A stretch of DNA of 64,000 bases from Anaerolineales bacterium (GTDB taxonomy: Bacteria > Chloroflexota > Anaerolineae > Anaerolineales > UBA11858), in NCBI GenBank assembly GCA_049644605.1, contig JBARSF010000005.1, forward strand, positions 538 to 64,537, in the 5' to 3' direction. Below, one piece after another: positions 5,184-40,046 of this stretch; within the stretch, counting starts at the first letter, position 1, and each line of letters opens with the position of its first letter. The position numbers were made by a program, and so were the translations under genes. A model generated the notes under the pieces. That model searched no databases. It was not told the origin of the DNA and saw nothing but the letters and a program-made list of their open reading frames with translations.

Positions 5184-5223
5184 GACTAATCTGAATTTGG
5201 ATAAAATACACAAGGAGAGAAGA

Positions 5224-6024
5224 ATGAAACGTTGGATGGGACTATCTTTACTCCTTATTTTCCTGTTGAGTGCCTGCGGTCCTTCCGAAGCGGACATACA
5301 AGCCACCGGTACGCAGGTGGCGGCTGAATTGTACGGCACACAGACTGCGCTGGCGCCCACTATCACGCCGACGATAACGCCCACACCAACGGAAACACTC
5401 ACACCGACACCTACATTCACACTTACAAACACTCCGCACCCGCCGACTGCCACCCTGACGGAAGCTGGCGTAGAGAAGCTGATGCTTTGCTACAAGGCGG
5501 CCGTGAGCCTCCAGGCCGATTGGGAGGTGCATCTCTTGATCTCTGGAAGAATGGGTTGGGAGTGGTACAACCCGGATAATGAATGGAAAAGCATAGATAA
5601 AATATCTCAGGAGCTGAATGCTTTCTGGTGGGAGCGCAGCCACCGAGCAGGTGGAATCAAGATTAAGTGGGTTAATTTAATAAATGTAACAGACAAAAGC
5701 CACGGTAATATTACCCTTATAGTGGATGGCGTGGAACTGCAGGAGTATAGGTGGGAACGCTCGGATTGTGATCAATATCTCAAAGAAATCTGGCTCTCCG
5801 ACACCAAACTCCTAATAGATCCTTGGGGGGGGGGTATGAAACGGATAAGCGAAGTCTCTTTCGCCTACAAGACTATCAATCAGGTTGTGAAGAAGATGCG
5901 CACAGAACTGCTGGAGATCTACGGCATCGATCCAGCCGAACTGGAAGCCATCGAAACCCCCATTTGGCAGTTCATGAGAAACCACTACGGCGAACCGCTC
6001 AGTAAAAATCGGTTTTGGGAATAG
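5224..6024 (+). CDS. Small lipoprotein, cassette copy B (unknown function)
   Basis: AAGGAGAG RBS before the ATG at 5224. Lipobox MKRWMGLSLLLIFLLSAC, then GTQTALAPTITPTITPTPTETLTPTP linker. EAGVEKLMLCYKAAVSLQADW is shared with copy C. The track ORF begins earlier, at 5197. The gene contains a G10 tract at 5825-5834. Confidence 0.7.
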   Translation: MKRWMGLSLLLIFLLSACGPSEADIQATGTQVAAELYGTQTALAPTITPTITPTPTETLTPTPTFTLTNTPHPPTATLTEAGVEKLMLCYKAAVSLQADWEVHLLISGRMGWEWYNPDNEWKSIDKISQELNAFWWERSHRAGGIKIKWVNLINVTDKSHGNITLIVDGVELQEYRWERSDCDQYLKEIWLSDTKLLIDPWGGGMKRISEVSFAYKTINQVVKKMRTELLEIYGIDPAELEAIETPIWQFMRNHYGEPLSKNRFWE

Positions 6025-6035
6025 AGGACAAAACT

Positions 6036-7742
6036 ATGAAGTTAAAACTAACTACATACCTGATGCTCGGGATCGCCTTCCTTGCCAGCGGCTGTGGCCC
6101 CAGCGAAAGTGAGCAGATCGCCACCATTACCCAGATTGCAGCCGGCATCATCGCCACGCAGACTGCCAATGCGCCTACCGCCACGCCCACCCCTACGTTG
6201 AGCCCCGGTGACACACGCACCTCACCGGTCGACGGCATGACCATGGTTTACATACCCCCGGGGGAGTATACACTTGGCTCGACCGAGGAGGATGTGGAAT
6301 GGGCGGTAGAGCAGTGCGGAAGAGCCAACAGCAGTTCCGAATATTCCTGGGATGACGAATGTGATACTGCTGAATTCCAGGACGAGATGCCCCAGCATAC
6401 TGTGCGGTTAGATCCATATTGGATTGACCAAACCGAGGTTACCGTGGCGATGTTCGCTCAATTTGTGGATGAGACAGGATACAAGACGGTAGCGGAGCGG
6501 TTTCAGTATAAGGATCTTACTTACACTGACAAATGGCGGTTTGAGAGAAACGCCGATTGGTCGAATCCATTTGGGCTTGAATCCGCTACCGAGGACTTGA
6601 AGGAGAACCCTGTCGTTAATGTCAGTTGGCAAGATGCCTGGACTTACTGTGAGTGGGCCGGTCGCAGGCTGCCAACCGAGGCTGAGTGGGAGGCCGCAGC
6701 CCGCGGGATGGATCTACGGATCTTTCCCTGGGGGGACGAGAGTCCACTAAATAATCATGCCAATTTGACTGATGACAGGAGTATTGTATTGGGACTCTCC
6801 AGCTCGTACAGCGATGGATATATGTGGATTTCCCCGGTGATGAGCTTCCCGGAGGGCGCCAGCCCCTTCGGTGTCTTGGGCATGGCCGGAAACGTCAAGG
6901 AATGGGTTTACGATTGGTACTCACCAGTGTATGATCTACCACCCCTTGCGGAGAACCCGATCAATACAACCGAAACCGAAATGCGCGTACGACGCAGCGG
7001 CAGCTTTGACACCTATCTCTCAGACATCCGCACAGCTAGCCGGGCGGGGAGCAGTCCGTACTGGACTGCCAGCGACTTGGGTTTCCGCTGTGTGTTATCG
7101 GAACTGGAATTACCAGATCCCCCGGAGCAAGACAGCTCCCCGCCTGACGCTGCGTTCGGGGATTGGAGAACGGTAGTATATGATAGCGTGGACATACATC
7201 AGTATGGGTATCTGAAAAGCTTTAGCGACCTGGAGATTCTAGGACAGTACTCCCAGTGCGAACACCTTAAAATCTCCACGCCGGATTACCCGGAAGGCTG
7301 GCTGCACGCAAAGGATGATGTTACCCTCTACAAGGATTGTTCGGATTTCGAGGAGATATTCATTCGACCTGCTTCTAAGAACTGGTATCACTATCCAAAG
7401 GGATTCGGGGTCCTTACCGTGAAGAACCAGGGAGAGAGCGATGCCTACCTCGTCCTGGTGGACATTGATAATGAGGAGAGTTACGAGATTTATGTGCGGG
7501 CTGGTGAGCAGGTGATCATGGAGGATATCCTCGATGGCACATATGAGGTTTACACAACCAGCGGCACTACCTGGGTTTCCTATGATAAGCGTTTCAAGGA
7601 TGCCGTAAGCTATGAGAAGCTTACAGAGCCAATGGTATTCACATCCACCGAAACCCAAGCGACCTGGTGGGAAATCGTTCTTCAAACTGTGGAAGGCGGA
7701 AATACTGGTAGTATCCCCATTAATGAAAGCGACTTTCCATGA
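6036..7742 (+). CDS. Lipoprotein with non-catalytic FGE/SUMF1-like domain, copy B
   Basis: AGAGGA RBS before the ATG at 6036 (the track ORF starts at 6015). Lipobox MKLKLTTYLMLGIAFLASGC. Same motif set as copy A: YWIDQTEVTVAMF, RLPTEAEWEAAARG, GNVKEWVYDWY, LGFRCV. C-terminal tail GNTGSIPINESDFP. Confidence 0.85.
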   Translation: MKLKLTTYLMLGIAFLASGCGPSESEQIATITQIAAGIIATQTANAPTATPTPTLSPGDTRTSPVDGMTMVYIPPGEYTLGSTEEDVEWAVEQCGRANSSSEYSWDDECDTAEFQDEMPQHTVRLDPYWIDQTEVTVAMFAQFVDETGYKTVAERFQYKDLTYTDKWRFERNADWSNPFGLESATEDLKENPVVNVSWQDAWTYCEWAGRRLPTEAEWEAAARGMDLRIFPWGDESPLNNHANLTDDRSIVLGLSSSYSDGYMWISPVMSFPEGASPFGVLGMAGNVKEWVYDWYSPVYDLPPLAENPINTTETEMRVRRSGSFDTYLSDIRTASRAGSSPYWTASDLGFRCVLSELELPDPPEQDSSPPDAAFGDWRTVVYDSVDIHQYGYLKSFSDLEILGQYSQCEHLKISTPDYPEGWLHAKDDVTLYKDCSDFEEIFIRPASKNWYHYPKGFGVLTVKNQGESDAYLVLVDIDNEESYEIYVRAGEQVIMEDILDGTYEVYTTSGTTWVSYDKRFKDAVSYEKLTEPMVFTSTETQATWWEIVLQTVEGGNTGSIPINESDFP

Positions 7743-7975
7743 TCATCACATAAGACTCAGAATGGTGATGATAGTTTTATGTCAACCCAAGAAAATAAAT
7801 TGAGTAAATAGCAGCTTATTCCACTATGACCATCAGTTCTCTAGTTTTAACTTAGATAATATAAAGATCAGTGCTTGAAGACATGGGGTGCAGTAAGTTT
7901 CTCACCCCTTGTTCGAGATATTGCCCTTGAGTAAATGAGTCAGATATGTTTCATAGATTTAGATTGGAGAGCTCA

Positions 7976-8731
7976 ATGAAAAGATGGATCATCCTTGTTT
8001 TTGTGCTGTTATTCATGTTGAGTGCTTGCGGACCCTCAGAAGCAGATATGCATGCCACTGTCACGCAGGTGGCGGCTGAGCTGTACGGTACGCAAACCGC
8101 ATTGGCGCCTACTGCTACTTCTACAAGCACACCATCAATCACACCAACGCCATCGGAAACACCAACGCCAACAATGATACCAACCATTACGAACACTCCG
8201 CTCCCACCAACCGCCACCCTGAGGGAGGCTGGTGTGGAGAAGCTGCTGTTGTGCTACAAGGCTGCTGTGAGCGTCCAGGCAGATTGGGCGGTGCATAGCT
8301 TGATCTTCTTCAAAGTTCACAGCTACTCTGATAAAAAGTATCAAGAGCTGAATGCTTTTCTCTGGGAGCGCAGTCACAGATCAGGTGGTATCAGGATCTT
8401 TGATAAAAATCCGTTCCCTTTGGGTAACGATACGCTGGTGGTGGATGGTGTGCAAATAGAGAGCCAAGTTTATGGACGCGAGGATTGTGATCCTTATTTA
8501 GGCACAATCATTGGTTCGGCCGGGGGCTTGCGTAATGGTCCCTGGGGTGTAGGGGCAGGCTCGCGGATCAGCCATTCTCGCTCGATTATTAATACTGCTG
8601 TGAGTAAAATGCGAAAAGAGTTACATGAGGTGTACGGGATCTACAACGTCGTATTGGATGGCATTGAGGATCCCTTCTGGTTGTATGTTCACAATCGCTA
8701 CGGTGTCGAACTTCCGAGCTGGTTGCAGTAG
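7976..8731 (+). CDS. Small lipoprotein, cassette copy C
   Basis: GGAGAG RBS before the ATG at 7976 (the track ORF starts at 7946). Lipobox MKRWIILVFVLLFMLSAC. It is collinear with copy B through the Thr/Pro linker, EAGVEKLLLCYKAAVSVQADW, and the C-terminal EDPFWLYVHNRYG. Confidence 0.7.
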   Translation: MKRWIILVFVLLFMLSACGPSEADMHATVTQVAAELYGTQTALAPTATSTSTPSITPTPSETPTPTMIPTITNTPLPPTATLREAGVEKLLLCYKAAVSVQADWAVHSLIFFKVHSYSDKKYQELNAFLWERSHRSGGIRIFDKNPFPLGNDTLVVDGVQIESQVYGREDCDPYLGTIIGSAGGLRNGPWGVGAGSRISHSRSIINTAVSKMRKELHEVYGIYNVVLDGIEDPFWLYVHNRYGVELPSWLQ

Positions 8732-8745: not shown

Positions 8746-10458
8746 ATGAAAAGGAAATTATCATTGATCATGATCATGATCGGGATCGCGATGCTGTTTT
8801 TAGGATGTGGTCCGAATGAGTCCGAACAAATTGCCACTATCACCCAGATCGCTGCCGGAATCCTCGCTACCCAGACCGCCCAGGCGCCAACCATCACTCC
8901 AACTCCCTCTTTTGGGCCTGGGGACACAAGTGTCTCCCCTGTGGATGGAATGGTAATGCATTATATCCCGGGCGGTGAGTACATTCTAGGTTCCACGCAG
9001 GAAGATGTGGATTGGGCCGGAGAAGCATGTGTTCAGTTCAGTGAATATTGTAGTTCAAGTTCCTTCGAACATGAAATGCCTCAGCATAGTGTCCAGCTTG
9101 ATCCATACTGGATTGATCAGGTTGAGGTCACAATGGCTATGTTTACCAGGTTCATAGAGGAGACCGGTTATGAGACAGAAGCGGAGCGTATTCAGTATTC
9201 GTTTGTCAATGAAACTGGAACTTTTAAAGTCGTTCAGGACGCCGATTGGGAAAATCCATTTGGACCGGATTTTGAGCCCAAGGAGGAGGATCCAGTAGTG
9301 CATGTTAGCTGGTACGATGCCTGGGCATACTGCGCGTGGGCTGGACGCAGACTGCCTACTGAGGCCGAATGGGAGGCGGCTGCTCGTGGCACGGACCTGC
9401 GCCGTTTCCCATGGGGAGATACGCTTCCGGGAGACACACTCGCAAATCTAGCTGATATTAATTTAGATTCTTCCCGTATAAAAAACGAGGATGTGGATGA
9501 CGGTTTTCAAACAGTTAGCCCAGTGATGAGTTACCCCGAGGGCGCCAGCCCGTTTGGTGTCTTGGATATGGGAGGTAATGCCGCAGAATGGGTCTATGAT
9601 TGGTATACCCCTATGTATGATCTCCCTTCACCGGCTGTGAACCCGGTTAATACTACAGAAGTGGAAGTACGTGTGGTTCGAGGTGGCAGCTATAATAGTA
9701 TGCTCACTGCCGCCCGCACCTCAAGCAGAGGTGGGTCCAACCCTTATACGAGTACCAGCTATACCGGATTCCGCTGTGTGTCCTCAGACTTGGAACTACC
9801 TGACCCGCCTGACCGGGATATCACTCTGCCCGACCTGGCGCTTCTTGTGACAAAATCCGTCCTGGACCCCGAAGGACTAGAAATCCAAGGTTCTATATCG
9901 AGCGCCGATGATCTGAAAATCACCGGGCAATACAACCAGTGTTCACGCATAAAAATTTCCACTCCCGAGTTCTCGGAAGGATGGATAGATACGTGGAAGG
10001 TTGTGCTTTACAAGGATTGTTCTGAGCTGGAGGAGTATTTCTTGCGTCTCAGTTCTGGAACTTGGAAAGGAAGATATGAGCGCGGCGATGGGCGAGGTGC
10101 CCTGACGATTTCGAACCAAGGAAATATGGATGCGATGGTTGTGTTGAGCCGAGTTGAGCCAGAACGCGACCCTGATCTGGACGACAGTTTTTATGATTCC
10201 TGGATTTATATTCGATCGGGCGAACAAGCAACTATCGAGTACCTTCCTGATGGTCAATACGAGGTGTTCATCACCACAGGTACCACCTGGGTTCCATACG
10301 AAAAGCGATTCCAGCAGGCAGCCAGTTATGAGAAGCTTGAGGACTTCCTGGAGATCACTTCCACAGCTAGTACCTATTCGATTTGGGAGCTTACATTGGA
10401 GACTTCAGAAGGAGAAGCCGGCAGCATTCCAGTCAATGAGAGCGATTTTCCTCAATGA
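8746..10458 (+). CDS. Lipoprotein with non-catalytic FGE/SUMF1-like domain, copy C
   Basis: Lipobox MKRKLSLIMIMIGIAMLFLGC. Motifs YWIDQVEVTMAMF, RLPTEAEWEAAARG, GNAAEWVYDWY, VRGGSY, TGFRCV. C-terminal tail EGEAGSIPVNESDFPQ is nearly identical to that of copy A. Confidence 0.85.
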   Translation: MKRKLSLIMIMIGIAMLFLGCGPNESEQIATITQIAAGILATQTAQAPTITPTPSFGPGDTSVSPVDGMVMHYIPGGEYILGSTQEDVDWAGEACVQFSEYCSSSSFEHEMPQHSVQLDPYWIDQVEVTMAMFTRFIEETGYETEAERIQYSFVNETGTFKVVQDADWENPFGPDFEPKEEDPVVHVSWYDAWAYCAWAGRRLPTEAEWEAAARGTDLRRFPWGDTLPGDTLANLADINLDSSRIKNEDVDDGFQTVSPVMSYPEGASPFGVLDMGGNAAEWVYDWYTPMYDLPSPAVNPVNTTEVEVRVVRGGSYNSMLTAARTSSRGGSNPYTSTSYTGFRCVSSDLELPDPPDRDITLPDLALLVTKSVLDPEGLEIQGSISSADDLKITGQYNQCSRIKISTPEFSEGWIDTWKVVLYKDCSELEEYFLRLSSGTWKGRYERGDGRGALTISNQGNMDAMVVLSRVEPERDPDLDDSFYDSWIYIRSGEQATIEYLPDGQYEVFITTGTTWVPYEKRFQQAASYEKLEDFLEITSTASTYSIWELTLETSEGEAGSIPVNESDFPQ

Positions 10459-10579: not shown

Positions 10580-12349
10580 TTATTGTCTTTCGATCTGAAA
10601 TCCTGCCCTAGCCAATAATCGAGGGAGATCGCGGATATATACTTTGTTTTTTTCCTTTTCGCTAGGCGGTAGCTCCTCCCAGGGGATCAGATTCGGATTA
10701 GTCTTTTGATCAGAGTCTTTTTTTGATCCATAACGCCAGCCTTCAGCTTTTTTCTCCCGGCACCAGGACTCATGCTCCAGCTTTGCCATGCGGGTGACCT
10801 CATCGTCCTGATTGTCCCCCTTTTCGCTGAATACAAAATTCTCTGCATCCCAATCCCGCAAGGGTGCGATCCGGTACCCTGCTGAATTTAACATCACCGG
10901 TATTCTATCAGCCTGGCGGCGGTTCTTTTCTTTGATATATTCCGACAGATTATCCCAGGGGACAAGAACCTCGCTGGGCTGTTGAGCAATTCCAGAAAGG
11001 TTGATCCCTTCCAGGTAGACCCCATGAAGATTGCGGGCCAGGACCTCATGGGTGCCCTTCTCGAGGATCTCGGCGGTGCAGGTCTGGTCAAGTAAATCAA
11101 AGATCCGTAGATTCCCGAAAGACTTCTGGGCACCTGGATCCTCGCCCAGCAGAAGCCCCAGTCCTCCACTTTCAATCATTCGCAGGATAATCGGAATCTG
11201 ATAATTTCGGAGTTGGTGGTTGAGTCTAAGCCCGGTTTGCAAACTGAATCCTTCATCATCCAGGCAGACATACACAAAATCTAGCGGGAAGGTATTGTCT
11301 TGATTAAAAAGGGATCCAATTCGTTCAAAATCCCCCGACAGGATATTCATGTTTACCGCATTAAATTCACACAATTCCTCAAGTTGTGGGGTTTGAATTT
11401 GGAGGGATTCCAGGATTTGTTCCGCGTTCAGGTCGATGATGGATATGTGTATCTTTCTCTTGGGATCCGGGTTGTGAATTCTCCACCCACGGGCAGCTTC
11501 CACAACTAACCGTTGTCCCATTTTACCCAAACCAACCACCAGTATGTGGGGTTGTTGATTGGTTGGTTCCCTCATCCAGGGAGGACTTTCTTGCAGCATC
11601 AGCCGGGCACCCCGGTCAAAGATATTAAACAGCTCCAACCGGAAATGCGCATTGTTGTTTGTATGCAGTTCTTTTTCCCGCAAAAGTTCCCAGAGCTGGG
11701 AATCAAAAATATGGATGATACAGGTCAAGGTACCGCCCTTTCTTGAGCGGGATAGTTTTTCAGCCTGCACAGCCACTTCTGCGTTTTTTCCATCGTCCCC
11801 TAATACCGAGATCAGGCATTTGGCCCGGTGAAGCTTAACTTTTTCCAGCAAATCTGGATCCACGGCATCTCCATGGATAACTATGGCTCCTGCCGAACGG
11901 GCATTTTCAATCCAATCGTTTCCTTCGTCCATTTCTATCACTACGACAGGATTTCCACCCTGGAGAAATTGTGTCGTGAGACGGAATCCCTTTCTGCCCA
12001 GCCCACAGATAATGATCTGATCCCGGATAAACCACAGCCGGATCCGGTCCGTTTGCTGGATAAAGAGGGAAGTAAAAGCCAAAAAGGCAGTATAAGCGGT
12101 AACGGCCGGGACTAAAAATCGAGCGATTTGCAGTTCCCAGCTGACAGGAGGGGGTACAGCGCCAGAATTCATGGAAATTAATCCCAACGTCAGGTAAAGA
12201 TTGTCCAGGAAAGTCCGTTCCCCTCCTGCAACCAAGCCGTTTTTCCAGAAACCAATAAATCCCAGAATCAGGGAAGATAAACCAAGAGTCAGGATAATGA
12301 ACCAGCTGTAATCAGACCAAATACTCCGTAAATATTTTCCCCTGCTCAT
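10580..12349 (-). CDS. 2TM pore-loop channel-like membrane protein with two RCK/TrkA-N-type Rossmann domains and two C-terminal RyR repeats
   Basis: TM1 is WFIILTLGLSSLILGFIGFW, followed by a pore-helix/filter-like LDNLYLTLGLISMNSG and then TM2 LQIARFLVPAVTAYTAFLAFTSLFI. GxGxxG motifs IIICGLGRKG and VVGLGKMGQ are present. RyR-type repeats are VPWDNLSEYIKEKNRRQADRIPVMLNSAGYRI and EHESWCREKKAEGWRYG...IPWEELPPSEKEKNKVYIRDLPRLLARAGFQI. Confidence 0.8.
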   Translation of the reverse strand: MSRGKYLRSIWSDYSWFIILTLGLSSLILGFIGFWKNGLVAGGERTFLDNLYLTLGLISMNSGAVPPPVSWELQIARFLVPAVTAYTAFLAFTSLFIQQTDRIRLWFIRDQIIICGLGRKGFRLTTQFLQGGNPVVVIEMDEGNDWIENARSAGAIVIHGDAVDPDLLEKVKLHRAKCLISVLGDDGKNAEVAVQAEKLSRSRKGGTLTCIIHIFDSQLWELLREKELHTNNNAHFRLELFNIFDRGARLMLQESPPWMREPTNQQPHILVVGLGKMGQRLVVEAARGWRIHNPDPKRKIHISIIDLNAEQILESLQIQTPQLEELCEFNAVNMNILSGDFERIGSLFNQDNTFPLDFVYVCLDDEGFSLQTGLRLNHQLRNYQIPIILRMIESGGLGLLLGEDPGAQKSFGNLRIFDLLDQTCTAEILEKGTHEVLARNLHGVYLEGINLSGIAQQPSEVLVPWDNLSEYIKEKNRRQADRIPVMLNSAGYRIAPLRDWDAENFVFSEKGDNQDDEVTRMAKLEHESWCREKKAEGWRYGSKKDSDQKTNPNLIPWEELPPSEKEKNKVYIRDLPRLLARAGFQIERQ

Positions 12350-12431: not shown

Positions 12432-12992
12432 TTAATCCGGAAAATTTTCGTAGAATACCTTTCCTTGATCTTCCCCAAGAGTGGTGGGCTCTTCCGTACC
12501 CGGTACCCGGTTGCCGGCCATGATCCAGGCCAGTGGCAGGCCAATCAGGCGTGCTGCAGCAGCAATCTCACCTGTCCCCCCAACCCCCTGGGCTTCCCGA
12601 CCATCCCACACCACCAGGATGACAGCACTATGTTCCAGTACGTATGTCCCAACAGCGGCATATGCATCCTCACGGGTTGGGGAAGGAGGTATGGTGAATA
12701 CCTGATCCGCTTGTGACACCAGCGCCTGGAATTCTTTTTTAGATTCTGGGGATTTGAATTCTGATGAATAAACATCTTGAGGAACGGGCAGCGGCACAAT
12801 TAGTTGAGCTCCGGGTCTTTTAAGCACACGTTGCGCTGCCAGGCGATCGGCTCCCTCCGCCAGGGAAGAGATCACCTGGAATGAGGGGTCTCCAAAAATC
12901 CTCTCAATGTGGGTGAGAGCCTGATCAATCCCTGCGGTGAGTTTATCCACCTCGGACAGGAAACGGTGACCGGAGACACCAATGGTAAGCAT
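12432..12992 (-). CDS. SLOG-superfamily-like small protein (YpsA/DUF1273-, LOG-, DprA-like Rossmannoid)
   Basis: Motifs GVSGHR (N-terminal), SLAEGADRLAAQ and GVGGTGEIAAAA are arranged as in SLOG proteins; compare DprA in this window, SGLARGIDGIAHQ...ERSGALITA. The start lies 3 nt after the upstream stop, suggesting translational coupling. Fold assignment rests on motifs only. Confidence 0.6.
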   Translation of the reverse strand: MLTIGVSGHRFLSEVDKLTAGIDQALTHIERIFGDPSFQVISSLAEGADRLAAQRVLKRPGAQLIVPLPVPQDVYSSEFKSPESKKEFQALVSQADQVFTIPPSPTREDAYAAVGTYVLEHSAVILVVWDGREAQGVGGTGEIAAAARLIGLPLAWIMAGNRVPGTEEPTTLGEDQGKVFYENFPD

Positions 12993-12995: not shown

Positions 12996-15659
12996 TCAGG
13001 AATCCTTACCTTCATCATTCAAATCAGCTACTGTATATCCAATCTCAGTCAGCAGCCGGGGTATTGCCCGCACCAGGTCTCGGTCTTTATCCTTTTCAGC
13101 TTCAGGAAGATCTTCCCAGGGAATTAGTGCAGAATGCTGTTTCATAGATTTATTTGTTTCAGGAGCATATTTCCAACCGGCTTTGAGTTTGGAATTCATC
13201 CAGCGTTCATGCTCCATTATTGAGAGGCGTTCCAGGTCATCCTCTCCCTTGGGAAACTCCGCCGGCTCGTTGCTGCGGGCTGGAAGCATCACATACCCAA
13301 TCCGACCCAACTTGTGGGGAATATCACGAACTGCAGACCTGTTCTGTTCCTTTTCATCCTCTGGTAAATCTTCCCAGGGAAGAAGAGCACTGTGGGTTTT
13401 CCCATCATCGTTGGTGATTGGTCCGTATTTATATCCTTTCTCTTCCATTTTCTGGCAGAAGATTTGATGGTGGATGCTGGCCAATTTTTCCAACAGCTCT
13501 CCTTCTAAATTTACCTGCTGGACCAGGGCCAGGAATTCCTGCCCATTAACATGCAGGTCCAGCTGGCTTTCCGAAGGTAGACTGGAGCGGGAAAACCGGG
13601 TTTTGCTGGAAAGTTGGCTCATGGTTAAAATAGTTTCTATGGAGCGAACTCCGTGTTTGTAGTTACTTATATGCAGGAAAGCCCGCAGAACACCTTGATC
13701 GATATTTAATTTATTGTCTTGGAATAGATCGGGTTGATTAAGAAGCAGAATGGACCGCAGCAGGATCGCCCGCCGGATTATGGTATGGGGATCGTCCTCC
13801 CCCTGTTGCGGATTGGGACCGAGCACATTAACGTAGCCTTTTAACCGGCTAACAAAATCAGGCACTTTAGCAGCCCGGGCTTCTTCAGTGCTCAAACCTT
13901 TTCCAAAATCAGCCATTGTATGGCTGGTGCCGCCGGCAAAAACAAAGATTGAGCGCCCAATAGGATGAGTGATTTGTTCTTCCCGGAAGGCGCCGTCCTG
14001 CATGGGAGCCAGGAAGTAGCGCAACCATCCCAGGGTTTTATCACCTAAAGAGGTGTCAAACTCATCCCAGAATACCAGGGGAATTTTCCCATCAAGATTT
14101 ACATCCCTTACCTGATGGAGAGCATCCGGCAGCTCATCGATCGTATTCATCTGGGAGAGGTTAAATTCCAGTTTTTCGATCTTGCCGGGCGCAAGCGATT
14201 TTGCCACTTGCGTGATACCAAACGATTTCCCTGATCCAGGCGCCCCAAAAACCCCAATGGAAAGTGGGCGTTTTGGGCGATCCTGTTGGAGGTATTCATC
14301 CACCAAGGTGCAGATGGCCCGAAAACTTTCGATCTCCTGGCGATCCACAGTAACCAGATGACCAAATTTTCCAAAAGGAACATCGGGCAGAGCTGTTTCT
14401 ATGCCTTCCAGCACAGTTTGTTCCGCCACCTGGTCGAGATCATGCTGGTGCCGGTCATGTAAAATGGTCCAAAATTTACTTTGCTGAGTTTGACCAGCCT
14501 GTACCAGAGAGCGGACCGGATCTTGAACTTTGACATCAGCTAGAGGTTTTGCTGTTCCCGTTAACACCCTGGCGATATTTTGTATTGGAAAACGAACAGC
14601 GAATTTTTCACCGGGAGCTGGTTCTCCTTCATAACCATTCAGGTGAAGCTGGCGCAGGGCAGAGAAACCCGTTTGTATGCCTAGCGGGATGTCCGGATGG
14701 TCTTCTGAGATCATCAATTGATAAACCAGACCGGCAGTTAAACAGCTGGTATAGCCGATCATGCCCCCAGGATGATTTTGAATCCAGGTGCCTTCGATGG
14801 CCTCTGGGTCGAAGAATAATCGGCATTGGGTTGCCAGAGGAGAGGGCTGATTTTCCCCACTTGGATCTGGCCGGGAAAGCAGGGCTGCGCCCTCTGTGTA
14901 AAAAGAAAGCACCACATAGGCGCAGCGCGCTAGGCTATTCACGCGGGGATTGTGGACCAGTTCCCAGGCGACATCCTGAGCGGTTCGTTCCCAGGACAGT
15001 CCTTGGCTGATTTGGACTTCTGTCAGCCGCAGATCGTTGGCCGTAAGTATAACCACTAAACGATCTGCATGGTTTTTGAGGAGGTGATCCCAGAGGGGGC
15101 CCTGGGCAATGGGGCTGGCCATTTTAACCACAATCCAGGGAGTCTTCCCTGTTGCGGTCAGCGCTTTGGGCCAAAGAGCGGGCTGATCACGGAATCCCAA
15201 ATTTGCATCATCAAGGACGATTAAATCTGCTTCTAGGGGTTCATCCGCTATTTGGGAGGAAAGTGTATCCCCTGCTGGTAAATTACTGCTGCCTCCCAGA
15301 TCCAAGCCTAAAAAGTTTTCCACCCGCCAGGCTTTTCCGGTTGGGGATTTATATAAAGACCATAAAGAGTAAGAGTGATGGAATTGAGGATCACTTGGAA
15401 ATATTTGATCTGGGAAAGGAGTAGAGCTTAGAATCTTATGTCTGGCTTGAGTATCAGCAGCCTTGATTTGAGCAACTGCTTCGATTAAATCCGCTATTAG
15501 TGCTGCACCACCCCGCTGCGAATACGCTCGGGTCCAAGAGTTGGGATTCCAGGTCTGCGGAGCTCCATCACTGGATTGCCCTATATGGGCGATGTTCCAG
15601 TCGATGGTGATATCACCGGAAATTAATATAGTCCGGGGAGAAGAGGATTTTGAGGTCAT
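12996..15659 (-). CDS. Degenerate PfkB/ribokinase-like N-domain - AAA+ ATPase - tandem RyR repeats
   Basis: The N-terminal ~340 aa carries ILISGDITIDW, RGGAALIADLI, ADLIVLDD, RLVVILTANDLRL and HPGGMIGYTSCLTAG, which follow ribokinase-like order but lack the GAGD catalytic signature. Walker A is GAPGSGKS (nt 14223-14246), Walker B is PLVFWDEFD, and sensor-1-like is FVFAGGT. Two RyR repeats occupy nt 12999-13496: KMEEKGYKYG...LLPWEDLPEDEKEQNRSAVRDIPHKLGRIGY and EHERWMNSKLKAGWKYA...LIPWEDLPEAEKDKDRDLVRAIPRLLTEIGY. Confidence 0.8.
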   Translation of the reverse strand: MTSKSSSPRTILISGDITIDWNIAHIGQSSDGAPQTWNPNSWTRAYSQRGGAALIADLIEAVAQIKAADTQARHKILSSTPFPDQIFPSDPQFHHSYSLWSLYKSPTGKAWRVENFLGLDLGGSSNLPAGDTLSSQIADEPLEADLIVLDDANLGFRDQPALWPKALTATGKTPWIVVKMASPIAQGPLWDHLLKNHADRLVVILTANDLRLTEVQISQGLSWERTAQDVAWELVHNPRVNSLARCAYVVLSFYTEGAALLSRPDPSGENQPSPLATQCRLFFDPEAIEGTWIQNHPGGMIGYTSCLTAGLVYQLMISEDHPDIPLGIQTGFSALRQLHLNGYEGEPAPGEKFAVRFPIQNIARVLTGTAKPLADVKVQDPVRSLVQAGQTQQSKFWTILHDRHQHDLDQVAEQTVLEGIETALPDVPFGKFGHLVTVDRQEIESFRAICTLVDEYLQQDRPKRPLSIGVFGAPGSGKSFGITQVAKSLAPGKIEKLEFNLSQMNTIDELPDALHQVRDVNLDGKIPLVFWDEFDTSLGDKTLGWLRYFLAPMQDGAFREEQITHPIGRSIFVFAGGTSHTMADFGKGLSTEEARAAKVPDFVSRLKGYVNVLGPNPQQGEDDPHTIIRRAILLRSILLLNQPDLFQDNKLNIDQGVLRAFLHISNYKHGVRSIETILTMSQLSSKTRFSRSSLPSESQLDLHVNGQEFLALVQQVNLEGELLEKLASIHHQIFCQKMEEKGYKYGPITNDDGKTHSALLPWEDLPEDEKEQNRSAVRDIPHKLGRIGYVMLPARSNEPAEFPKGEDDLERLSIMEHERWMNSKLKAGWKYAPETNKSMKQHSALIPWEDLPEAEKDKDRDLVRAIPRLLTEIGYTVADLNDEGKDS

Positions 15660-15847
15660 GGGACTGCCTTTTTATAATCTGCGTGAATGAACAGGGTTCG
15701 CTTTTTACAGGAAGACTTATTACTTTTGTATATAGTATTCGTAACGTATAGCCTTTATAATTATAATCGTTTCTATGCTGAGAGGGGATGAGTACAGAAA
15801 AGCACTGAACAATTATTTCGAAAAAATGAAATCCAAATTAACAAGGT

Positions 15848-18169
15848 ATGAAATATATGTCTGCAGAGAATGTCAGCACCCAGGATTTTGATATCTTTGT
15901 CAGCTATTCCTCGCAGGATAAGTCCATAGCGGATGCAGTAGTTGCCGCCCATGAACAGGCCGGGATCCGCTGCTGGTATGCACCGCGTGATATCGCGCCG
16001 GGCGCAGATTGGGCAGATTCCATCACCAAGGCCATTCATGATTGTTCCATCATGGTGCTGATTTTTTCAAAAGAAGCCAATCGTTCCCAGCGGGTGATCG
16101 ATGAGGTCAATTATGCTATCAGCCAGGAAAAACCCCTGCTCCCTTTCCGGATTGAATCCTCAAATCCCACCGGTGCACTCAGCCTTCATTTATCTTCCCG
16201 GCACTGGTTGGATGCTTATGATCCCGGCTGGGAAGATCATATTGAGAGGCTGGTAAAGAGCGTAACGATAAATCTGGAAGATGCCGATGAGACGATCCAG
16301 ATCAGTGGGGGAGAAGCCGATTCCATTGTTGGGGAAAGAGCACAGAAGCAGCTGAAAAAACAAAAATCCTTCAAGAACCTTGGTTATCTTGCAGGAGGTT
16401 TGATAGTCGTTTCCCTTTTGGGGTATTTCGGGTGGAAGTATTTTGGAGAGGGAAAACTTGGGCTGGATCCTAGAAATTCCACAATCACACTGGAAGAATC
16501 TACACCAACCGAATCTTTGCCAGAACCAACTGAGATAGAAGAGACCAGCGAGGTGGTGCCCCCAGAAATACCTTCTTATACTGCGGTTCTGCATGGTTCA
16601 ATTGAAGAACAGGGGTTTTCGCTTGATCCCCAGAAGGAAAATACAGGTGATTTGGCACTGAATTTGTTTCTCACTTTGACAGCATATGATTATGAAAACG
16701 CGGCCGTGGTTCCGCGAGCAGCAGAAAGCTGGACAGTCAGTCCGGATGGGCGCATCTATACTTTTAAGTTACGGGCAGAGATCCCCTGGGTAATCCATGC
16801 TCTGGAAGGAGATACGGTTCAAATTACTGACGAAGATGGCAGCCCCCGATATGTGTCCGCCGCTGATTTTGAATATGCCTATAAAAGGTTGTGTGATCCC
16901 GCTATCGAAGATTTCCGTCTGCGACCCACGAACATTCAAGGGTGTAGTGATGTTTTGGAATATACAGATCCTGAGAATATTCCCCCGGAACTATTTGATG
17001 AGATTGGTGTGGAAGCAATATCAGATACAGAATTGATTTTTACTCTTGAAGAACCATCCGGCTATTTCCTGACCACAACATCTAATTTGTCTTTCTCAGC
17101 CGTGCCTGCCTGGGCATTAGAAAAATATAGTGAAGCCTGGACAAATCCTGGGCTGATGCCCACCAATGGAGTTTTTGTGATTGATGAGTGGGTTCCCGGG
17201 GAAAGGATCCGCTTGGTTCGCAATGAGCTCTTACCGATCGAAGTGCAGGGGGAGGGTAATATCAAAACGGTTGAGCTGATGATGTTAAATGACACCGAAG
17301 CTTATGAAATGTGGGGAACAGGTCAGATTGATTACGCATCCATCCCTGAAGAGTACCTTGCAAACCATCTTATCCAGAATTCAGATCAAACCAATCAAGC
17401 ATTGGATCAAATTGTTTATTATTTGATATTCAACTTGGATCAACCACCATTTGATAATATTCACCTCCGGCGGGCATTCTCCGCGGCTTTAAATAGAACT
17501 TATTTTGTCAACGATATCCTCCAGGAGGGAGGACTCCCAATGAACCATTTAGCGCCTCCTGGTGTGTTTGGCGCCCCGCCGGTGGACGAAGTAGGCGTTG
17601 GTTACGCCCTGAAGTATGCCCGGGCTGAATTAGAACTTGCCGGGTACCCCCAATGCCTGGATTTGCCAATGATTGATTTTACTGCTTTTTCCACCTCAAT
17701 AGATAAAAATGCTGATAAGATTGCACGTTCCTGGGAAGAAGGATTGGATTGCCCTGAGGGAACCATAAATTATCTAGGAAATGTCTTTGGTGATAATGGC
17801 TATCAGAGTGAGTGGGATATATTAGGGGCTGGTTGGAGAAGTGATTACCCTGATGAAGAAAACTGGGTAGGACCAGTTCTATATTGTGACAATAAAAGGT
17901 TTGTAGAACGAAGTTGTAATGAAATTGATGAGCTGATAGTTCAAGCCAGGGAGGAAATTAATGCTTCTAAACGCATTGAACTATACCGTCAAATTGAGGA
18001 ATCTTTTTTTGGTTATGAAGGAACTTTTCCGATTGCACCCCTTTATACACCATTCTTTTATACAGCCAGTTACGATTGGGTTGAGTATACCCAAGCCGGT
18101 TTTTGGATTGATGATTATTCAAAATATTGGATTGATATAGATGCCAAAGAGGCTGCACGGGGGGAGTGA
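15848..18169 (+). CDS. TIR domain - single TM helix - family-5 solute-binding (peptide/nickel SBP-like) domain protein, copy 1
   Basis: TIR motifs FDIFVSYSSQDK, IRCWYAPRDIAPGADW and IMVLIFSKEANRSQRVIDEVNYA. TM helix LGYLAGGLIVVSLLGYFGW is preceded by KKQK. SBP_5-like motifs follow: LFLTLTAYDYENAAVVPRAAESWTVSPDGRIYTFKLRAEIPW and ERIRLVRNE. No ABC permease or ATPase genes lie nearby. Confidence 0.85.
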   Translation: MKYMSAENVSTQDFDIFVSYSSQDKSIADAVVAAHEQAGIRCWYAPRDIAPGADWADSITKAIHDCSIMVLIFSKEANRSQRVIDEVNYAISQEKPLLPFRIESSNPTGALSLHLSSRHWLDAYDPGWEDHIERLVKSVTINLEDADETIQISGGEADSIVGERAQKQLKKQKSFKNLGYLAGGLIVVSLLGYFGWKYFGEGKLGLDPRNSTITLEESTPTESLPEPTEIEETSEVVPPEIPSYTAVLHGSIEEQGFSLDPQKENTGDLALNLFLTLTAYDYENAAVVPRAAESWTVSPDGRIYTFKLRAEIPWVIHALEGDTVQITDEDGSPRYVSAADFEYAYKRLCDPAIEDFRLRPTNIQGCSDVLEYTDPENIPPELFDEIGVEAISDTELIFTLEEPSGYFLTTTSNLSFSAVPAWALEKYSEAWTNPGLMPTNGVFVIDEWVPGERIRLVRNELLPIEVQGEGNIKTVELMMLNDTEAYEMWGTGQIDYASIPEEYLANHLIQNSDQTNQALDQIVYYLIFNLDQPPFDNIHLRRAFSAALNRTYFVNDILQEGGLPMNHLAPPGVFGAPPVDEVGVGYALKYARAELELAGYPQCLDLPMIDFTAFSTSIDKNADKIARSWEEGLDCPEGTINYLGNVFGDNGYQSEWDILGAGWRSDYPDEENWVGPVLYCDNKRFVERSCNEIDELIVQAREEINASKRIELYRQIEESFFGYEGTFPIAPLYTPFFYTASYDWVEYTQAGFWIDDYSKYWIDIDAKEAARGE

Positions 18170-18371
18170 GTATCAGCAAAATAAGTTTAGGTCTGAGTGT
18201 GTGAAAAAAATAATCCCAGGAATATTTCTGATTACTTCAGAGATATAAGTGCTTTTGTTTGGTATTTGTAAGCAGCCCTGGTGATCAACTGGCTGATGCT
18301 GTGTAGTATAATGACGGCTTCTCTTATCTAAAGAAATTCATTAGTTAAACAAAGGATAAACGGATCTAACA

Positions 18372-20690
18372 ATGAAACCTGAGGATCGCACTCCCCCCAA
18401 CTTTGATATTTTTGTCAGTTATTCCTCACAGGATAAGTTCATAGCAGATGCAGTAGTAGCCGCCCATGAACAGGTTGGGATCCGCTGCTGGTATACACCG
18501 CGTGATATCGCGCCTGGTGCTGACTGGGCAGACTCGATTACCCAGGCCATTCATGATTGTAAGATTATGGTGTTGATTTTCTCAAAGGAAGCTAATCGCT
18601 CCCAGCGAGTAATTGATGAGGTCAATTATGCCATCAGCCAGGAAAAACCCCTGCTTCCCTTCCGGATCGAACCTTCCAATCCCACTGGCGCCCTCAGCCT
18701 GCATTTATCTTCCCGGCACTGGTTGGATGCTTATGATACTGGCTGGGAAGCCCATATTAAGAGGCTGGTCAAGAGTGTTAAGACCAATCTGGAAAATGCC
18801 ACAGATACGATCCAGATCAGCGGAGGAGAAGCGCCTTCCATTGTAGGGGGAAGGGTCGCAAAACAAGCGAAAAGACAGGTCTCCCTCAAGACGCTTGGTT
18901 ACGTTGCAGGAGGATTGATAGTTGTTTCTTTGTTAGGATTTTTCGGCTGGAATTATCTGGGAAAAGGTAAACCAGAGCTAGCCCCTGAAATTACCTCCCC
19001 CTCACCAGTAGAATCTACTCCAACTGCATATCTTCCTGAACCAATTGAATCGCAAGAGACCAGCGATATAAATCCCGCAGAAGTATCTTCTCATAATGCA
19101 GTTCTTCATCTAGCTATCAAAGAGCAAAATCTTGTAATTGATCCTCTGATAGCAGGCATCCAATTTGTACCGTTTACACAAAGCTTATTTCTCACTTTAA
19201 CAGGATTCGATTATGAAAACGAGACTGTCTATCCGTATATAGCACAGAACTGGACCATCAGCCCGGATAGGCGTATATATACTTTTACGTTGAGACCAGA
19301 TATCCCCTGGGTAACCCATGCTCTCGGTGGAGAAACAGTTCAGGTTATTGATGAAGAAGGATATCCTCGTTTTCTAACAGCTTCTGATTTTGCGTATGCC
19401 TTTAAACGGTTGTGTGATCCCGGTTTCGATAACATCGATCTACGTCCCACAAATATTATAGGTTGCAGCGAAGTTCTGGAATATGCAAACCCGGGAAACA
19501 TCCCCCCGGAATTATTCGATGAAATTCGAGTGGAGGCAGTTTCAGATACAGAATTGGTGTTTTATCTTGAAGAACCTTCCGCTTATTTCTTGACCGATAC
19601 AGCTAATATTTCCTCCTCAGCTGTGCCTGGCTGGGCCATAGAAGAATATGGTGACTCCTGGACAAACCCGGAACTGATAGCTACTCATGGAGCTTTTGTG
19701 ATTGATGATTGGGTTCCCGGAGAGTCAATCCGCCTGGTTCGGAACGAACTCTTTCCGGTTGATATGCAAGGTGTCGGAAATATCCAAACAGTGGAGATGG
19801 TGTTGGAAGGCAGTGCCTATGACTTGTGGTTAAATAACGAGGTAGATATCGCGCAAGTCCCTGCCCCCGAAACTGGGTCTTTCCTGAAGCAGTTTCCAGC
19901 TCAAGCTCTCCCAGAGCTTGGTGATGTTCATCACTTTATGATTTTTAACAGCACTGAGTTCCCATTTGATAAACTTCACCTTCGACGTGCTTTTTCAGCT
20001 GGGTTAAACCGATCCTATTTGGTTAGAGATGTCTTCCAGGGAGGGTGGATGCCCATGATACACCTGGCGCCCCCGGGCACATTTGGCGCTCCACCGTTGA
20101 ATGAAGTGGGTGTTGGAGATGACCAGGAATTCGCCCGGTCAGAGTTAGAACTTGCAGGGTATCCAGAATGCCAGGGTCTGCCAATTATCAATTTCCTCAG
20201 TGCATCCGGATTCATGCTCGATATATCCGCGGAGGAAATTGCACGCTCCTGGGAGAAGACCCTGGGATGCCCTGAAGGGACGATAGAATACAAAGGGAAT
20301 ATATTGAGGGACGATAGTCTAAGTTCAAACGGGTGGGATATCCTGAGTATTGGGTGGATGGGTGAATACCCAGATCAAGAAGCCTGGGTAGGGGCAATCC
20401 TCTACTGCGACTCCGAATCCTGGATTAATGAGTTAATAAATCGAAGCTGCACCGAAGTTGATCAACTTATTATTCAGGCCAGGGAAGAAATTAGCCAATC
20501 TGACCGGATTCAACAATACCGTCAAATTGAGGAGTATTTTTTCGGTTATGAAGGGACCTTTCCAATTGCACCGATGTTTGCTCCAACGATATATACTGCA
20601 AAATCTCATTGGTTCGATGATAGTCAAGGCGGGAATATTTCCGATTGGATCATTGACATGGATGTCAAGCAGGCAGTGCTGGGCGAGTGA
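18372..20690 (+). CDS. TIR domain - single TM helix - family-5 solute-binding domain protein, copy 2
   Basis: Collinear paralogue of 15848-18169. By eye, the TIR part is about 90% identical at protein level with many synonymous DNA differences. The SBP part is clearly more diverged. Confidence 0.85.
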   Translation: MKPEDRTPPNFDIFVSYSSQDKFIADAVVAAHEQVGIRCWYTPRDIAPGADWADSITQAIHDCKIMVLIFSKEANRSQRVIDEVNYAISQEKPLLPFRIEPSNPTGALSLHLSSRHWLDAYDTGWEAHIKRLVKSVKTNLENATDTIQISGGEAPSIVGGRVAKQAKRQVSLKTLGYVAGGLIVVSLLGFFGWNYLGKGKPELAPEITSPSPVESTPTAYLPEPIESQETSDINPAEVSSHNAVLHLAIKEQNLVIDPLIAGIQFVPFTQSLFLTLTGFDYENETVYPYIAQNWTISPDRRIYTFTLRPDIPWVTHALGGETVQVIDEEGYPRFLTASDFAYAFKRLCDPGFDNIDLRPTNIIGCSEVLEYANPGNIPPELFDEIRVEAVSDTELVFYLEEPSAYFLTDTANISSSAVPGWAIEEYGDSWTNPELIATHGAFVIDDWVPGESIRLVRNELFPVDMQGVGNIQTVEMVLEGSAYDLWLNNEVDIAQVPAPETGSFLKQFPAQALPELGDVHHFMIFNSTEFPFDKLHLRRAFSAGLNRSYLVRDVFQGGWMPMIHLAPPGTFGAPPLNEVGVGDDQEFARSELELAGYPECQGLPIINFLSASGFMLDISAEEIARSWEKTLGCPEGTIEYKGNILRDDSLSSNGWDILSIGWMGEYPDQEAWVGAILYCDSESWINELINRSCTEVDQLIIQAREEISQSDRIQQYRQIEEYFFGYEGTFPIAPMFAPTIYTAKSHWFDDSQGGNISDWIIDMDVKQAVLGE

Positions 20691-20716
20691 AAAAAAAGAT
20701 GAAAATAATTCAAATC

Positions 20717-21120
20717 CCAGGCCAGCTTATAAGCCGCATTCTGTCTGATGTATATCCGGTTTACACCCCGGAGGGCTTCCTCCCTTTAATACACTGAGGT
20801 GATTATCTGTCTGGGGCGCGCTTCTCAGCGCGCCTCGGTGCAGCCTACCTGGAATTCGAGGGAGACGAGCAGCCTCCCCTCCCGAAGGAGTTCATCCCTG
20901 TTTGGCCTTGCTCCCGATGGGGGTTGCCCGGCCGCAGGCATTGCTGCCTGCGCCGGTGGTCTCTTACACCACCATTTCACCCTTACTCCCGAAGGAGCGG
21001 TATGTTTCTGTGGCCCGATCCGGCAGATCACTCCGCCCCGGACGTTATCCGGCACCGTGCTCGGTGGAGTGCGGACTTTCCTCGCCCTGCGAACAGGGCG
21101 CAACCACCTGGCTGACCTGG
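20717..21120 (-). ncRNA. rnpB: RNase P RNA, bacterial type A
   Basis: The minus strand reads CCAGGTCAGC...GAGGAAAGTCCGCAC (P4 5' strand)...AGTAAGGGTGAAATGGTGGTGTAAGAGACCACC...ACAGAATGCGGCTTATAAGCTGGCCTGG (P4 3' strand, with P1 closing onto the 5' end). Shadow ORFs on both strands fit a structured GC-rich RNA. Confidence 0.85.
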
Positions 21121-21192
21121 GGAACACATCATATCACTTTTTGAAATTTTCTAATAGGGTTTGACCCAGGGGTCAGCAACCGAGTGTGGAAA

Positions 21193-39765: not shown

Positions 39766-39838
39766 CACCCTCGGCGTGATTCGAACACGCGACCCCTTAC
39801 TCCGCAAGCAAGTGCTCTATCCACTGAGCTACGAGGGC
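39766..39838 (-). tRNA. tRNA-Arg (anticodon GCG)
   Basis: The minus strand reads GCCCTCG-TA-GCTC-AGTGGATA-GAGC-A-CTTGC-TTGCGGA-GTAAG-GGGTC-GCGTG-TTCGAAT-CACGC-CGAGGGT-G. The cloverleaf folds, with U33 and G37. The 3' end is encoded as CC, not a full CCA. Confidence 0.8.
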
Positions 39839-39847
39839 AGACAATCA

Positions 39848-39956: not shown

Positions 39957-40046
<90 letters not shown>

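Follow-up and report, generated by a model that had tools for sequence, protein, structure and literature searches.

Two adjacent genes of an Anaerolineales bacterium (assembly GCA_049644605.1, contig JBARSF010000005.1) encode receptor-like proteins in which an N-terminal TIR domain, one transmembrane (TM) helix and a family-5 solute-binding protein (SBP) domain follow one another (TIR-SBP5 proteins hereafter). These genes, open reading frames (ORFs) A and B, lie in the 64,000-nucleotide stretch analysed here (the window) next to a divergent cassette of three minus-strand genes (10580-15659, upstream of ORF A), whose products R887, p186 and T589 are predicted to supply several ligand-binding modules, known or predicted, for ADP-ribose (ADPR)-type compounds: Repeat12 (R12), SLOG and RCK. 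What would be new here is a proposed form of TIR nucleotide signalling with an extracellular receptor domain as its input and an R12-gated channel as its candidate output. The mechanistic content of this finding is supplied by the cassette and by a third TIR protein with WD40 propellers, both absent from the original prediction, which was made from the letters of the same DNA and dealt with the two receptors.

With a slight lean, we favour a pathway in which an extracellular peptide-like ligand activates the TIR domains and an NAD-derived messenger reaches R12 and SLOG sensors, an ion channel among them. An OppA-like Venus-flytrap domain outside the cell would bind a peptide-like ligand with a free amino group, and binding would alter the oligomeric state of the receptor. 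The N-terminal cytoplasmic TIRs would then come together in an active state that cleaves NAD+, releasing an ADPR-derived messenger, probably an isomer of cyclic ADPR (cADPR). On binding the R12 domain of T589, the likely effector, the messenger would open a cation pathway, and the ion flux would alter the membrane potential. R887, a nucleoside triphosphatase (NTPase)-R12 protein whose second repeat keeps the His/Asp dyad of the phage enzyme RyDEP, may sense or hydrolyse the signal; p186, a YpsA-type SLOG protein, may be its sensor or processor, and the two together would sense, process or terminate it. A, B and the TIR-TM-WD40 protein would act as alternative inputs into one shared output, which would explain a conserved TIR with diverged sensors. 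Statements on the function of the receptors and of the cassette, be it enzymatic activity, the identity of the messenger, its binding by R12 and SLOG domains, gating of the channel or biological role, are predictions throughout.

ORF A (15848..18169, plus strand; 773 amino acids (aa), or 770 aa in the database copy, which begins at Met4) was defined from the ORF list, Pfam, BLASTP and a protein-cluster search, and its paralogue ORF B (18372..20690, plus strand, 772 aa) from the ORF list, Pfam, BLASTP and a Nei-Gojobori comparison. The TIR_2 domain (PF13676, cut-off 28 bits) covers aa 16-136 of A (15893..16255, 85.5 bits) and aa 13-133 of B (18408..18770, 82.1 bits). The core of the OppA-like ectodomain (SBP_bac_5, PF00496, cut-off 32.4 bits) covers aa 287-683 of A (16706..17896, 167 bits, also found by PDB sequence search) and aa 285-680 of B (19224..20411, 142 bits). 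Between the two domains of A lies a single hydrophobic helix, LGYLAGGLIVVSLLGYFGW (aa 178-196, 16379..16435), which hydropathy and Lys/Arg asymmetry place N-in; that of B is at about aa 175-193 (18894..18950). All of these features are on the plus strand. Six Lys/Arg residues occur in the 15 residues on the N-terminal side of the helix of A, against three in 15 on the C-terminal side, and in 91 family members these counts average 4.1 and 1.6, the N-terminal side being the richer in 81. Neither protein has an N-terminal signal peptide or lipobox, and the SBP part comes after the internal helix. Its six ectodomain cysteines, which are specific to this family, are invariant in all 62 full-length relatives and fit an extracytoplasmic location. 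Taken together, the charge asymmetry, the lack of an N-terminal signal and the six cysteines indicate a cytoplasmic TIR and an SBP part on the outer side. The original prediction had given both ORFs this layout of an N-terminal TIR, one TM helix and an outer SBP part of family 5, and Pfam, hydropathy and the charge distribution bear it out, as do the OppA and MppA structures that are the closest solved relatives of the ectodomain. It had also spoken of a Toll-like-receptor topology. The sidedness stands, but the domain order is the reverse: in A and B the TIR is N-terminal, with the N-terminus inside, and the ectodomain C-terminal.

Apart from this order, the likeness to the Toll-like and interleukin-1 receptors of animals comprises a single pass, a ligand-binding ectodomain, a cytoplasmic TIR with Box1 and Box2, and a conserved TIR joined to diversified ectodomains among paralogues. 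They differ in that the ectodomain is an SBP instead of leucine-rich repeats or immunoglobulin domains, and the output is probably enzymatic (to judge by a conserved Glu), as against adaptor scaffolding; common descent of the architecture is not implied. In A, where both boxes are of the metazoan style, Box1 reads FDIFVSY (aa 14-20) and Box2 RDIAPG (aa 47-52, matching RDxxPG), with R47 and D48 invariant in 62 of 62 relatives; prokaryotic TIRs usually lack Box2 according to one survey (PMC7075850). Among the best PDB sequence matches of the TIR of A are a metazoan TIR-STING fusion protein and Toll-receptor-related 2. Glu86 of A, invariant in all 62 full-length relatives, pairs in alignment with the SRWCLDEL Glu of the RPV1 TIR. 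In RPV1 and RUN1, that Glu is the catalytic residue of plant TIR NADases. Glu86 is thus a putative catalytic residue, and the TIRs of A and B are putatively of the enzyme (NADase or cyclase) type.

The two halves of the receptors have diverged to very different extents. Over the whole proteins A and B are 62% identical (BLASTP); the TIR parts (aa 14-140) have a protein identity of 92% and a DNA identity of 87%, with a synonymous divergence (dS) of 0.66, a non-synonymous divergence (dN) of 0.04 and a ratio of the two (omega) of 0.06, as against 57% protein identity, dS 1.28, dN 0.30 and omega 0.235 for the SBP parts (aa 256-773; both by Nei-Gojobori). The by-eye estimates of the original prediction, about 90% and 60% protein identity, were close, and calculating dN/dS for each half, as it had proposed, finds the sensor the more diverged. 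The third codon positions of the TIR parts are only 70% identical and their longest identical DNA run, 36 nt, is within shuffle expectation (mean 30.5, 95th percentile 44), so that recent gene conversion is ruled out, and it is purifying selection that keeps the TIRs similar, rather than a conversion or duplication of recent date. This much of the earlier interpretation holds. The lower dS in the TIR than in the SBP part (the proportion of synonymous differences, pS, is 0.44 as against 0.62, a difference estimated at about 3 standard errors) is compatible with an older homogenisation of the TIR or with codon constraint on it. The same contrast is seen across genomes: the TIR of A is 91-93% identical to orthologues whose SBP parts are 68-79% identical, and still 57-65% identical in homologues whose SBP parts are about 40% identical. 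The most diverged patch between A and B lies inside the SBP, at about aa 461-540 of A (17228..17467) and the matching part of B, with 25-30% identity and a proportion of non-synonymous differences (pN) of about 0.5.

By sequence the closest solved structures to the ectodomain of A are the OppA proteins of E. coli and Salmonella (E 2e-35 to 1e-32), with 3tcf and 9rd1 at E 2e-35 and the OppA match spanning aa 258-722 (E 2e-35); then come further OppA proteins, DppE and MppA, a binder of murein tripeptide (E 4e-23). The best NCBIfam models for A and B are OppA, an OppA-like SBP and DppA, all scoring far under their equivalog cut-offs, so that A and B are members of the fold family and not orthologues of a named transporter SBP. 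In the alignment, the OppA segment R413-A-G-W-C-A-D419 pairs with G-A-G-W-R-S-D666 of A. In the OppA structures, Asp419 forms a salt bridge with the alpha-amino group of the bound peptide. Its equivalent is D666 in A, Glu in B and Asp or Glu in 56 of 62 relatives, and the carboxylate anchor of OppA, Arg413, has no kept equivalent in the TIR-SBP5 family. These two residues suggest, as our best guess, a peptide-like ligand with a free amino terminus, for which oligopeptides or cell-wall peptides are the candidates. A and B thus share with the cluster C, family-5 proteins OppA, MppA and DppA the fold family and, in most members, the Asp that anchors the alpha-amino group; they differ in their fusion to a TIR and their anchoring through an internal TM helix, in lacking a signal peptide, a lipobox and transporter genes nearby, and in having the six invariant cysteines and no equivalent of Arg413.

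A transport function has to be considered at this point, namely that A and B are ordinary SBPs, anchored in the membrane, that bind peptides for an Opp/Dpp importer encoded elsewhere, the TIR being a non-enzymatic scaffold or a regulator of uptake. The best matches of the ectodomain are indeed transport SBPs (OppA, MppA, DppA), source databases annotate the family as oligopeptide transport SBPs, monoderm bacteria must tether their SBPs, and our view covers 64 kb of the genome. Yet no gene for an ABC (ATP-binding cassette) permease or ATPase (BPD_transp, ABC_tran) was found in the window or beside the TIR-SBP5 homologues P0024, P0028 and P0060, which extends to the whole 64 kb the earlier remark that no such partner lies nearby. 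An Opp operon suspected at 51315-57072 (minus strand) was rejected; the region encodes a dynamin-like GTPase, an amino-acid kinase, two UbiA proteins and a GHMP kinase. Also, the TIR is far more constrained than the SBP and keeps the Glu aligned with the catalytic Glu of plant TIRs, and the same TIR-TM module is found on ectodomains other than SBPs (lectin, FGE-sulfatase, propellers). We regard a role in transport as very improbable, and prefer to see the SBP part as the sensor of a signalling receptor.

The TIR plus SBP_bac_5 architecture is not a singleton. Among 5.8 billion clustered proteins we found some 60-70 clusters (at 90% identity) of 740-810 aa, 40-79% identical, from Anaerolineales/Chloroflexota and Anaerolineae metagenomes; where they carry a name, it is only "ABC transporter substrate-binding protein" or "oligopeptide transport system substrate-binding protein". 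Scanning 185,579 species, each represented by one genome, gave nine loci (L006-L014) with a full or nearly full-length TIR-SBP5 copy, eight in Chloroflexota metagenome-assembled genomes (MAGs) and one on a short contig binned as Bacteroidales. TIRs of 45-67% identity to that of A are followed by one TM helix in 44 of 44 cases, and the ectodomains joined to related TIR-TM modules include Peripla_BP_6, Bmp, Phosphonate-bd, FGE-sulfatase (formylglycine-generating-enzyme-like, its fold being that of C-type lectins), C-type lectin, BNR, PD40, WD40 or PQQ propellers, and domains without a Pfam match. An exhaustive HMMER family search with aa 1-200 of A returned 1,200 cluster representatives (clustered at 50% identity) at E <= 1e-30 and 13,463 at E <= 1e-10. 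On the grounds of these numbers and the varied ectodomains, sequence comparison assigns A and B to a large modular TIR-TM-X family, of which TIR-SBP5 is a modest, Anaerolineae-centred branch. One locus (L159:11586-19280) has four or five consecutive TIR genes, two of them with PQQ/BamB-like beta-propellers, a few kb from an R887-like/SLOG pair, which looks like a local expansion of TIR sensors. The original prediction knew of no described TIR-SBP_5 fusion, and we likewise found no paper that describes one: a literature search, which one relevant comparative-genomics paper escaped, gave no TIR-SBP fusion, no bacterial transmembrane TIR receptor family and no cellular operon of TIR and RyR-domain genes, and two papers of the Aravind group (PMC9503650, PMC7159879) make no mention of RyR or SBP fusions.

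Linkage of the cassette to TIR-TM genes was assessed with our own TIR and RyR hidden Markov models on six-frame ORFs, with Pfam on selected proteins, and with precomputed database Pfam labels. In raw counts, without correction for phylogeny, a RyR-domain ORF lies 20-1600 bp from the TIR gene in 13 of 80 TIR-seeded genome loci (the 19 closest TIR relatives account for 11 of them, and two come from Coriobacteriia/actinobacterial MAGs), and a TIR gene is present in 11 of the 24 metagenome loci that were seeded on SLOG and span 8 kb or more, and in all three evaluable T589-seeded loci. Several arrangements are operon-like. At L001 the genes for R887, p186, T589 and TIR-SBP5 are co-directional with gaps of 3, 58 and 119 bp; at L013 a T589-like gene is 20 bp upstream of TIR-SBP5; and L130 combines R887, SLOG, T589, TIR-TM-Bmp and TIR-WD40. 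The divergent layout of the window recurs at L002/L014, with a 603-aa RyR variant in place of R887. At L016, L017, L018 and L024 the full trio stands beside TIR-TM proteins of 415-464 aa with a non-SBP ectodomain, and at the T589-seeded loci L166-L168 (by precomputed Pfam labels) a RyR protein and T589 are followed by one or two TIR-WD40 genes, L167 carrying a TIR-FGE-sulfatase gene in addition. The linkage tracks the TIR-TM module and not the SBP. In at least six loci (L116, L120, L125, L126, L131 and L158) R887-like and SLOG (p186-like) parts are fused into proteins of 1075-1278 aa, and these fusions, as Rosetta-stone type evidence, suggest that the two proteins act together.

It is against this linkage that a rival scheme is to be judged, in which the receptor senses an outside cue and its TIR merely depletes NAD+, leading to growth arrest or suicide with no diffusible messenger, the cassette being independent or modulatory. 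Many bacterial TIR proteins are plain NADases, the TIRs discussed here keep the conserved Glu, and some TIR-SBP5 loci are without the cassette. But the linkage is recurrent and operon-like across sensor types and gene orders, and the partners carry three kinds of modules known or predicted for ADPR-type ligands (R12, SLOG and RCK). We consider such a terminal NADase unlikely.

The 188-bp region between the divergent R887 gene and ORF A (15660..15847) is, from the gene layout, inferred to be a shared control region; it overlaps a promoter-like site at 15650-15678 (plus strand), and a promoter and terminator scan of 15500-21300 found no sites beyond chance level. R887 (12996..15659, minus strand, 887 aa) was delineated from Pfam RyR (PF02026, 85.2 bits, cut-off 27.4 bits), PDB matches to RyR Repeat12, residue analysis and co-occurrence with TIR genes. 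Its tandem R12-like domain (about aa 720-877, 12999..13502, minus strand) matches the Repeat12 region of RyR1-3 and a RyR-like protein of B. thetaiotaomicron in the PDB. The middle part (about aa 443-536) is a weak P-loop/AAA-like NTPase (nSTAND_NTPase5 at E 1e-4, under the cut-off). To this NTPase-R12 part is attached an uncharacterised but conserved domain (aa 1-440, mean column identity 54% over 16 orthologues), of which the N-terminal 384 aa have no Pfam, NCBIfam or PADLOC match and the whole 440 aa no PDB match with a profile of the 16 sequences. The next gene, p186 (12432..12992, minus strand, 186 aa), has no match in Pfam, NCBIfam or PADLOC and was classified from its AlphaFold2 (AF2) model (pLDDT 91.5) by Foldseek. 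B. subtilis YpsA (2nx2) comes first (E 2.4e-7, TM-score 0.64-0.66), followed by DprA, LOG proteins, the ThsA SLOG domain with 3'cADPR (PDB 7uxs) and TRPM4. From this model, p186 is a YpsA-clade protein of the SLOG superfamily, and is predicted to be a nucleotide-binding or nucleotide-processing module.

T589 (10580..12349, minus strand, 589 aa) is a GsuK-like channel protein by Pfam (TrkA_N 74 bits, RyR 69.8 bits), AF2 (pLDDT 81.9) and Foldseek. It has a two-TM pore-like module (aa 1-106, 12032..12349, minus strand), tandem RCK/TrkA_N lobes (aa 111-420) and a C-terminal R12-like domain (about aa 425-588, 10586..11077, minus strand); in the model, aa 2-106 form two long helices, between which lie a short helix and then a loop, after which come two Rossmann lobes and a helical C-terminal domain. 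Full-length GsuK is the top Foldseek match (E 1e-11), then TrkA, MthK (E 7e-8) and human RyR3 Repeat12. GsuK, whose structure was solved with NAD and ADP, is a K+ channel of the two-TM type that has tandem RCK domains. With GsuK and MthK, T589 shares TM1, pore helix, loop and TM2 ahead of the tandem RCK lobes; it differs in the added C-terminal R12 domain and in the filter, LISMNSG as against TVGYG. The motif LDNLYLTLGL[IL]S[ML]N[ST]G of the pore loop is near-invariant in 33 homologues of 51-81% overall identity, and Pfam gives no Ion_trans_2 match for T589.

What the R12 domains may do with a messenger was approached through the phage proteins. RyDEP hydrolyses 2'cADPR as well as 3'cADPR; His75 and Asp117 are catalytic, and Trp78 and His100 are binding residues (PMC13232231). 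According to the same source and a second 2026 preprint (bioRxiv 10.64898/2026.06.04.730250), phage RyR-domain proteins use H/W/H/D residues either to cleave such isomers or to sequester 3'cADPR, 2'cADPR and cADPR at nanomolar affinity, and their pocket coincides with the adenine-nucleotide and dantrolene site of RyR3 Repeat12. We compared the RyDEP ligand positions 0, +3, +25 and +42 (H, W, H, D). Repeat 2 of R887-like proteins reads HWHD in 21 of 27 orthologues, R887 of the window included, and repeat 1 mostly HFHN; the second repeat of T589-like proteins reads HWHN in most orthologues, and T589 of the window HWNN. From these four positions, T589 looks like a non-catalytic binder in the manner of animal RyRs, and R887 could bind or cleave a cADPR-type signal. 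The phage precedent raises the possibility that the TIR signals, while the RyR-domain proteins mainly degrade or buffer the signal, as RyDEP and RyR-Tad do, the effector being elsewhere. The complete dyad (His at 0, Asp at +42) in those 21 R887 orthologues speaks for this (PMC13232231). Yet T589-like proteins lack the acid (HWHN or HWNN), an R12 domain fused to a channel-like body nearest to the ligand-gated GsuK is the layout of an effector, and no other candidate effector lies beside the TIR genes in the window; we think a mainly quenching cassette improbable. With phage RyDEP and RyR-Tad and animal Repeat12, R887 and T589 have in common R12 domains that match Pfam RyR and Repeat12 structures and whose H/W/H/D ligand positions are in their case kept wholly or in part. 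The phage proteins are, however, small homodimeric anti-defence sponges or glycosidases, whereas in this cellular genome tandem repeats are joined to an NTPase or to a channel, and this layout beside TIR genes suggests that they may be signal receivers, a role not described for bacteria.

To our knowledge, bacterial TIR nucleotide signalling is known only from cytoplasmic anti-phage sensors. Closest in working is Thoeris (ThsB TIR plus ThsA SLOG-SIR2, and the newer types V-XI), in which a sensor TIR makes an NAD-derived messenger for an effector, the logic that we also expect here. Both have a TIR protein encoded beside domains that bind, or here are predicted to bind, ADPR-derived signals, and both include a SLOG-fold protein, the SLOG domain of ThsA being one that binds 3'cADPR (PDB 7uxs). 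The differences are that the TIRs of A and B are membrane-anchored with an extracytoplasmic ligand-binding domain, which argues for an outside cue as the input and not an intracellular phage cue, and that the candidate effectors are R12-domain proteins, one of them a GsuK-like channel. The locus does not belong to Thoeris: there is no ThsA-type SIR2/Macro effector, p186 is of the YpsA type and lacks any SIR2, Macro or TM effector part, and the PADLOC result and the setting also differ. Of the locus, PADLOC picks up the TIR part alone, through its SAVED-TIR and Ago-TIR models, with ThsB models at E of about 0.007, and a 2025 Thoeris survey does not mention RyR, solute-binding or Chloroflexi. 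Among sensors, the periplasmic-binding-protein fold is coupled outside the cell to a cytoplasmic output in BvgS, natriuretic-peptide and class C G-protein-coupled-type receptors. In these Venus-flytrap receptors the output is a kinase, a cyclase or a seven-TM module, in A and B it is a TIR; our literature search found no description of a Venus-flytrap or SBP sensor coupled to a TIR.

Several observations weigh against the messenger pathway as we draw it. On the side of the receptors, a conserved Glu is by itself no proof of NADase or cyclase activity, and the SBP could dock to a transporter encoded elsewhere in the genome. On the side of the output, the filter of T589 (ISMNSG in the window) is not the K+ filter T[VI]GYG, conduction by T589 being a prediction, and the window copy has lost the phosphate-contacting His (H, W, N, N). 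PADLOC finds no known defence system at the locus, the neighbours of the TIR genes being without a match. As to the linkage, a minority of TIR-SBP5 loci (L004/P0060 and L012) have no cassette within 9-10 kb, about half of the long SLOG-seeded loci have no TIR gene, and many positive loci are syntenic regions of related Anaerolineae. Since several share the arginyl-tRNA synthetase (ArgRS)/S20/methylase synteny with the window, the positives are not all independent; among the remaining ones gene order, orientation, flanking genes and sensor type vary.

The third TIR protein of the window (2226..5183, plus strand, 985 aa) has a TIR_2 domain (aa 4-124), a TM helix at about aa 202-222 and WD40 propellers. 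It lies 8 kb away, and its TIR is 25% identical to that of A. TIR-WD40 genes abut RyR/T589 genes at L120, L130, L166, L167 and L168, and the protein is probably a further sensor feeding the same cassette. Around its gene are three paralogues of about 570 aa (493..2178, 6015..7742 and 8746..10458, plus strand) with a hydrophobic, lipoprotein-like N-terminus and an FGE-sulfatase domain, the domain also seen as TIR-TM ectodomain at L015, L167 and P0079; two ORFs without matches (5197..6024 and 7946..8731) lie between these paralogues. The TIR/RyR locus occupies a conserved chromosomal position in the window and at L002, L166, L167 and L168, near ArgRS, S20, an N6_N4 DNA methylase, a response regulator and a sugar cluster (phosphotransferase-system EIIC-GAT/DeoR). 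By genome, the TIR sensor genes at this site are two SBP5, one SBP5, one or two WD40, and FGE-sulfatase, and these differences suggest sensor turnover at a fixed chromosomal site. The methylase of the window (34459..35742, plus strand) has no restriction enzyme among the ORFs scanned beside it, and the syntenic L166 and L168 keep the N6_N4_Mtase gene near ArgRS. Directly downstream of ORF B is a class A RNase P RNA (RF00010, 256.7 bits, 20714..21119, minus strand), which accounts for the G+C-rich overlapping pseudo-ORFs on both strands at 20799..21164. Further along are three tRNA genes (39766..40046, minus strand, Rfam tRNA 54-64 bits), a 300-aa ribosomal protein S16 with a long C-terminal extension that includes an E3_binding motif (41630..42532, plus strand), and topoisomerase I with an N-terminal DUF5679 zinc-ribbon-like domain (45870..48197, plus strand); the last is the 775-aa ORF at 45870 that had been a candidate third paralogue of A and B.

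The setting is one of housekeeping, syntenic chromosome (ArgRS, RNase P RNA, SRP54, S16, TopA) and not of a defence island. The cue may be an immune one (phage attack or wall damage) or a physiological one (nutrients or kin peptides); given the variety of nutrient-type SBPs in the family and this setting, we lean towards general environmental sensing. A broader proposal, which we put forward tentatively, is an outside-in TIR pathway in which SBP, lectin and propeller ectodomains drive TIRs to make a cADPR-type messenger that gates an ion channel via R12, with SLOG and NTPase-R12 partners. If true, it would be the first TIR system with an extracellular receptor domain as its input, and bacterial TIR signalling could convey information from one side of the membrane to the other. 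The RyR-domain proteins of bacterial cells, now orphans annotated as "NAD-binding protein" or "hypothetical", would become receivers of TIR messengers, and the pathway would be a prokaryotic counterpart of the animal axis from SARM1/CD38 via cADPR/ADPR to RyR/TRPM2, to which it may have supplied parts in evolution. It would also offer a simple and testable bacterial model for the long-debated question whether cADPR acts directly on animal RyR Repeat12. The TIR-TM-X family is a natural set of swappable sensors on one signalling chassis, and in filamentous Chloroflexota it may, if the proposal is true, serve environmental or kin sensing and not phage defence alone.

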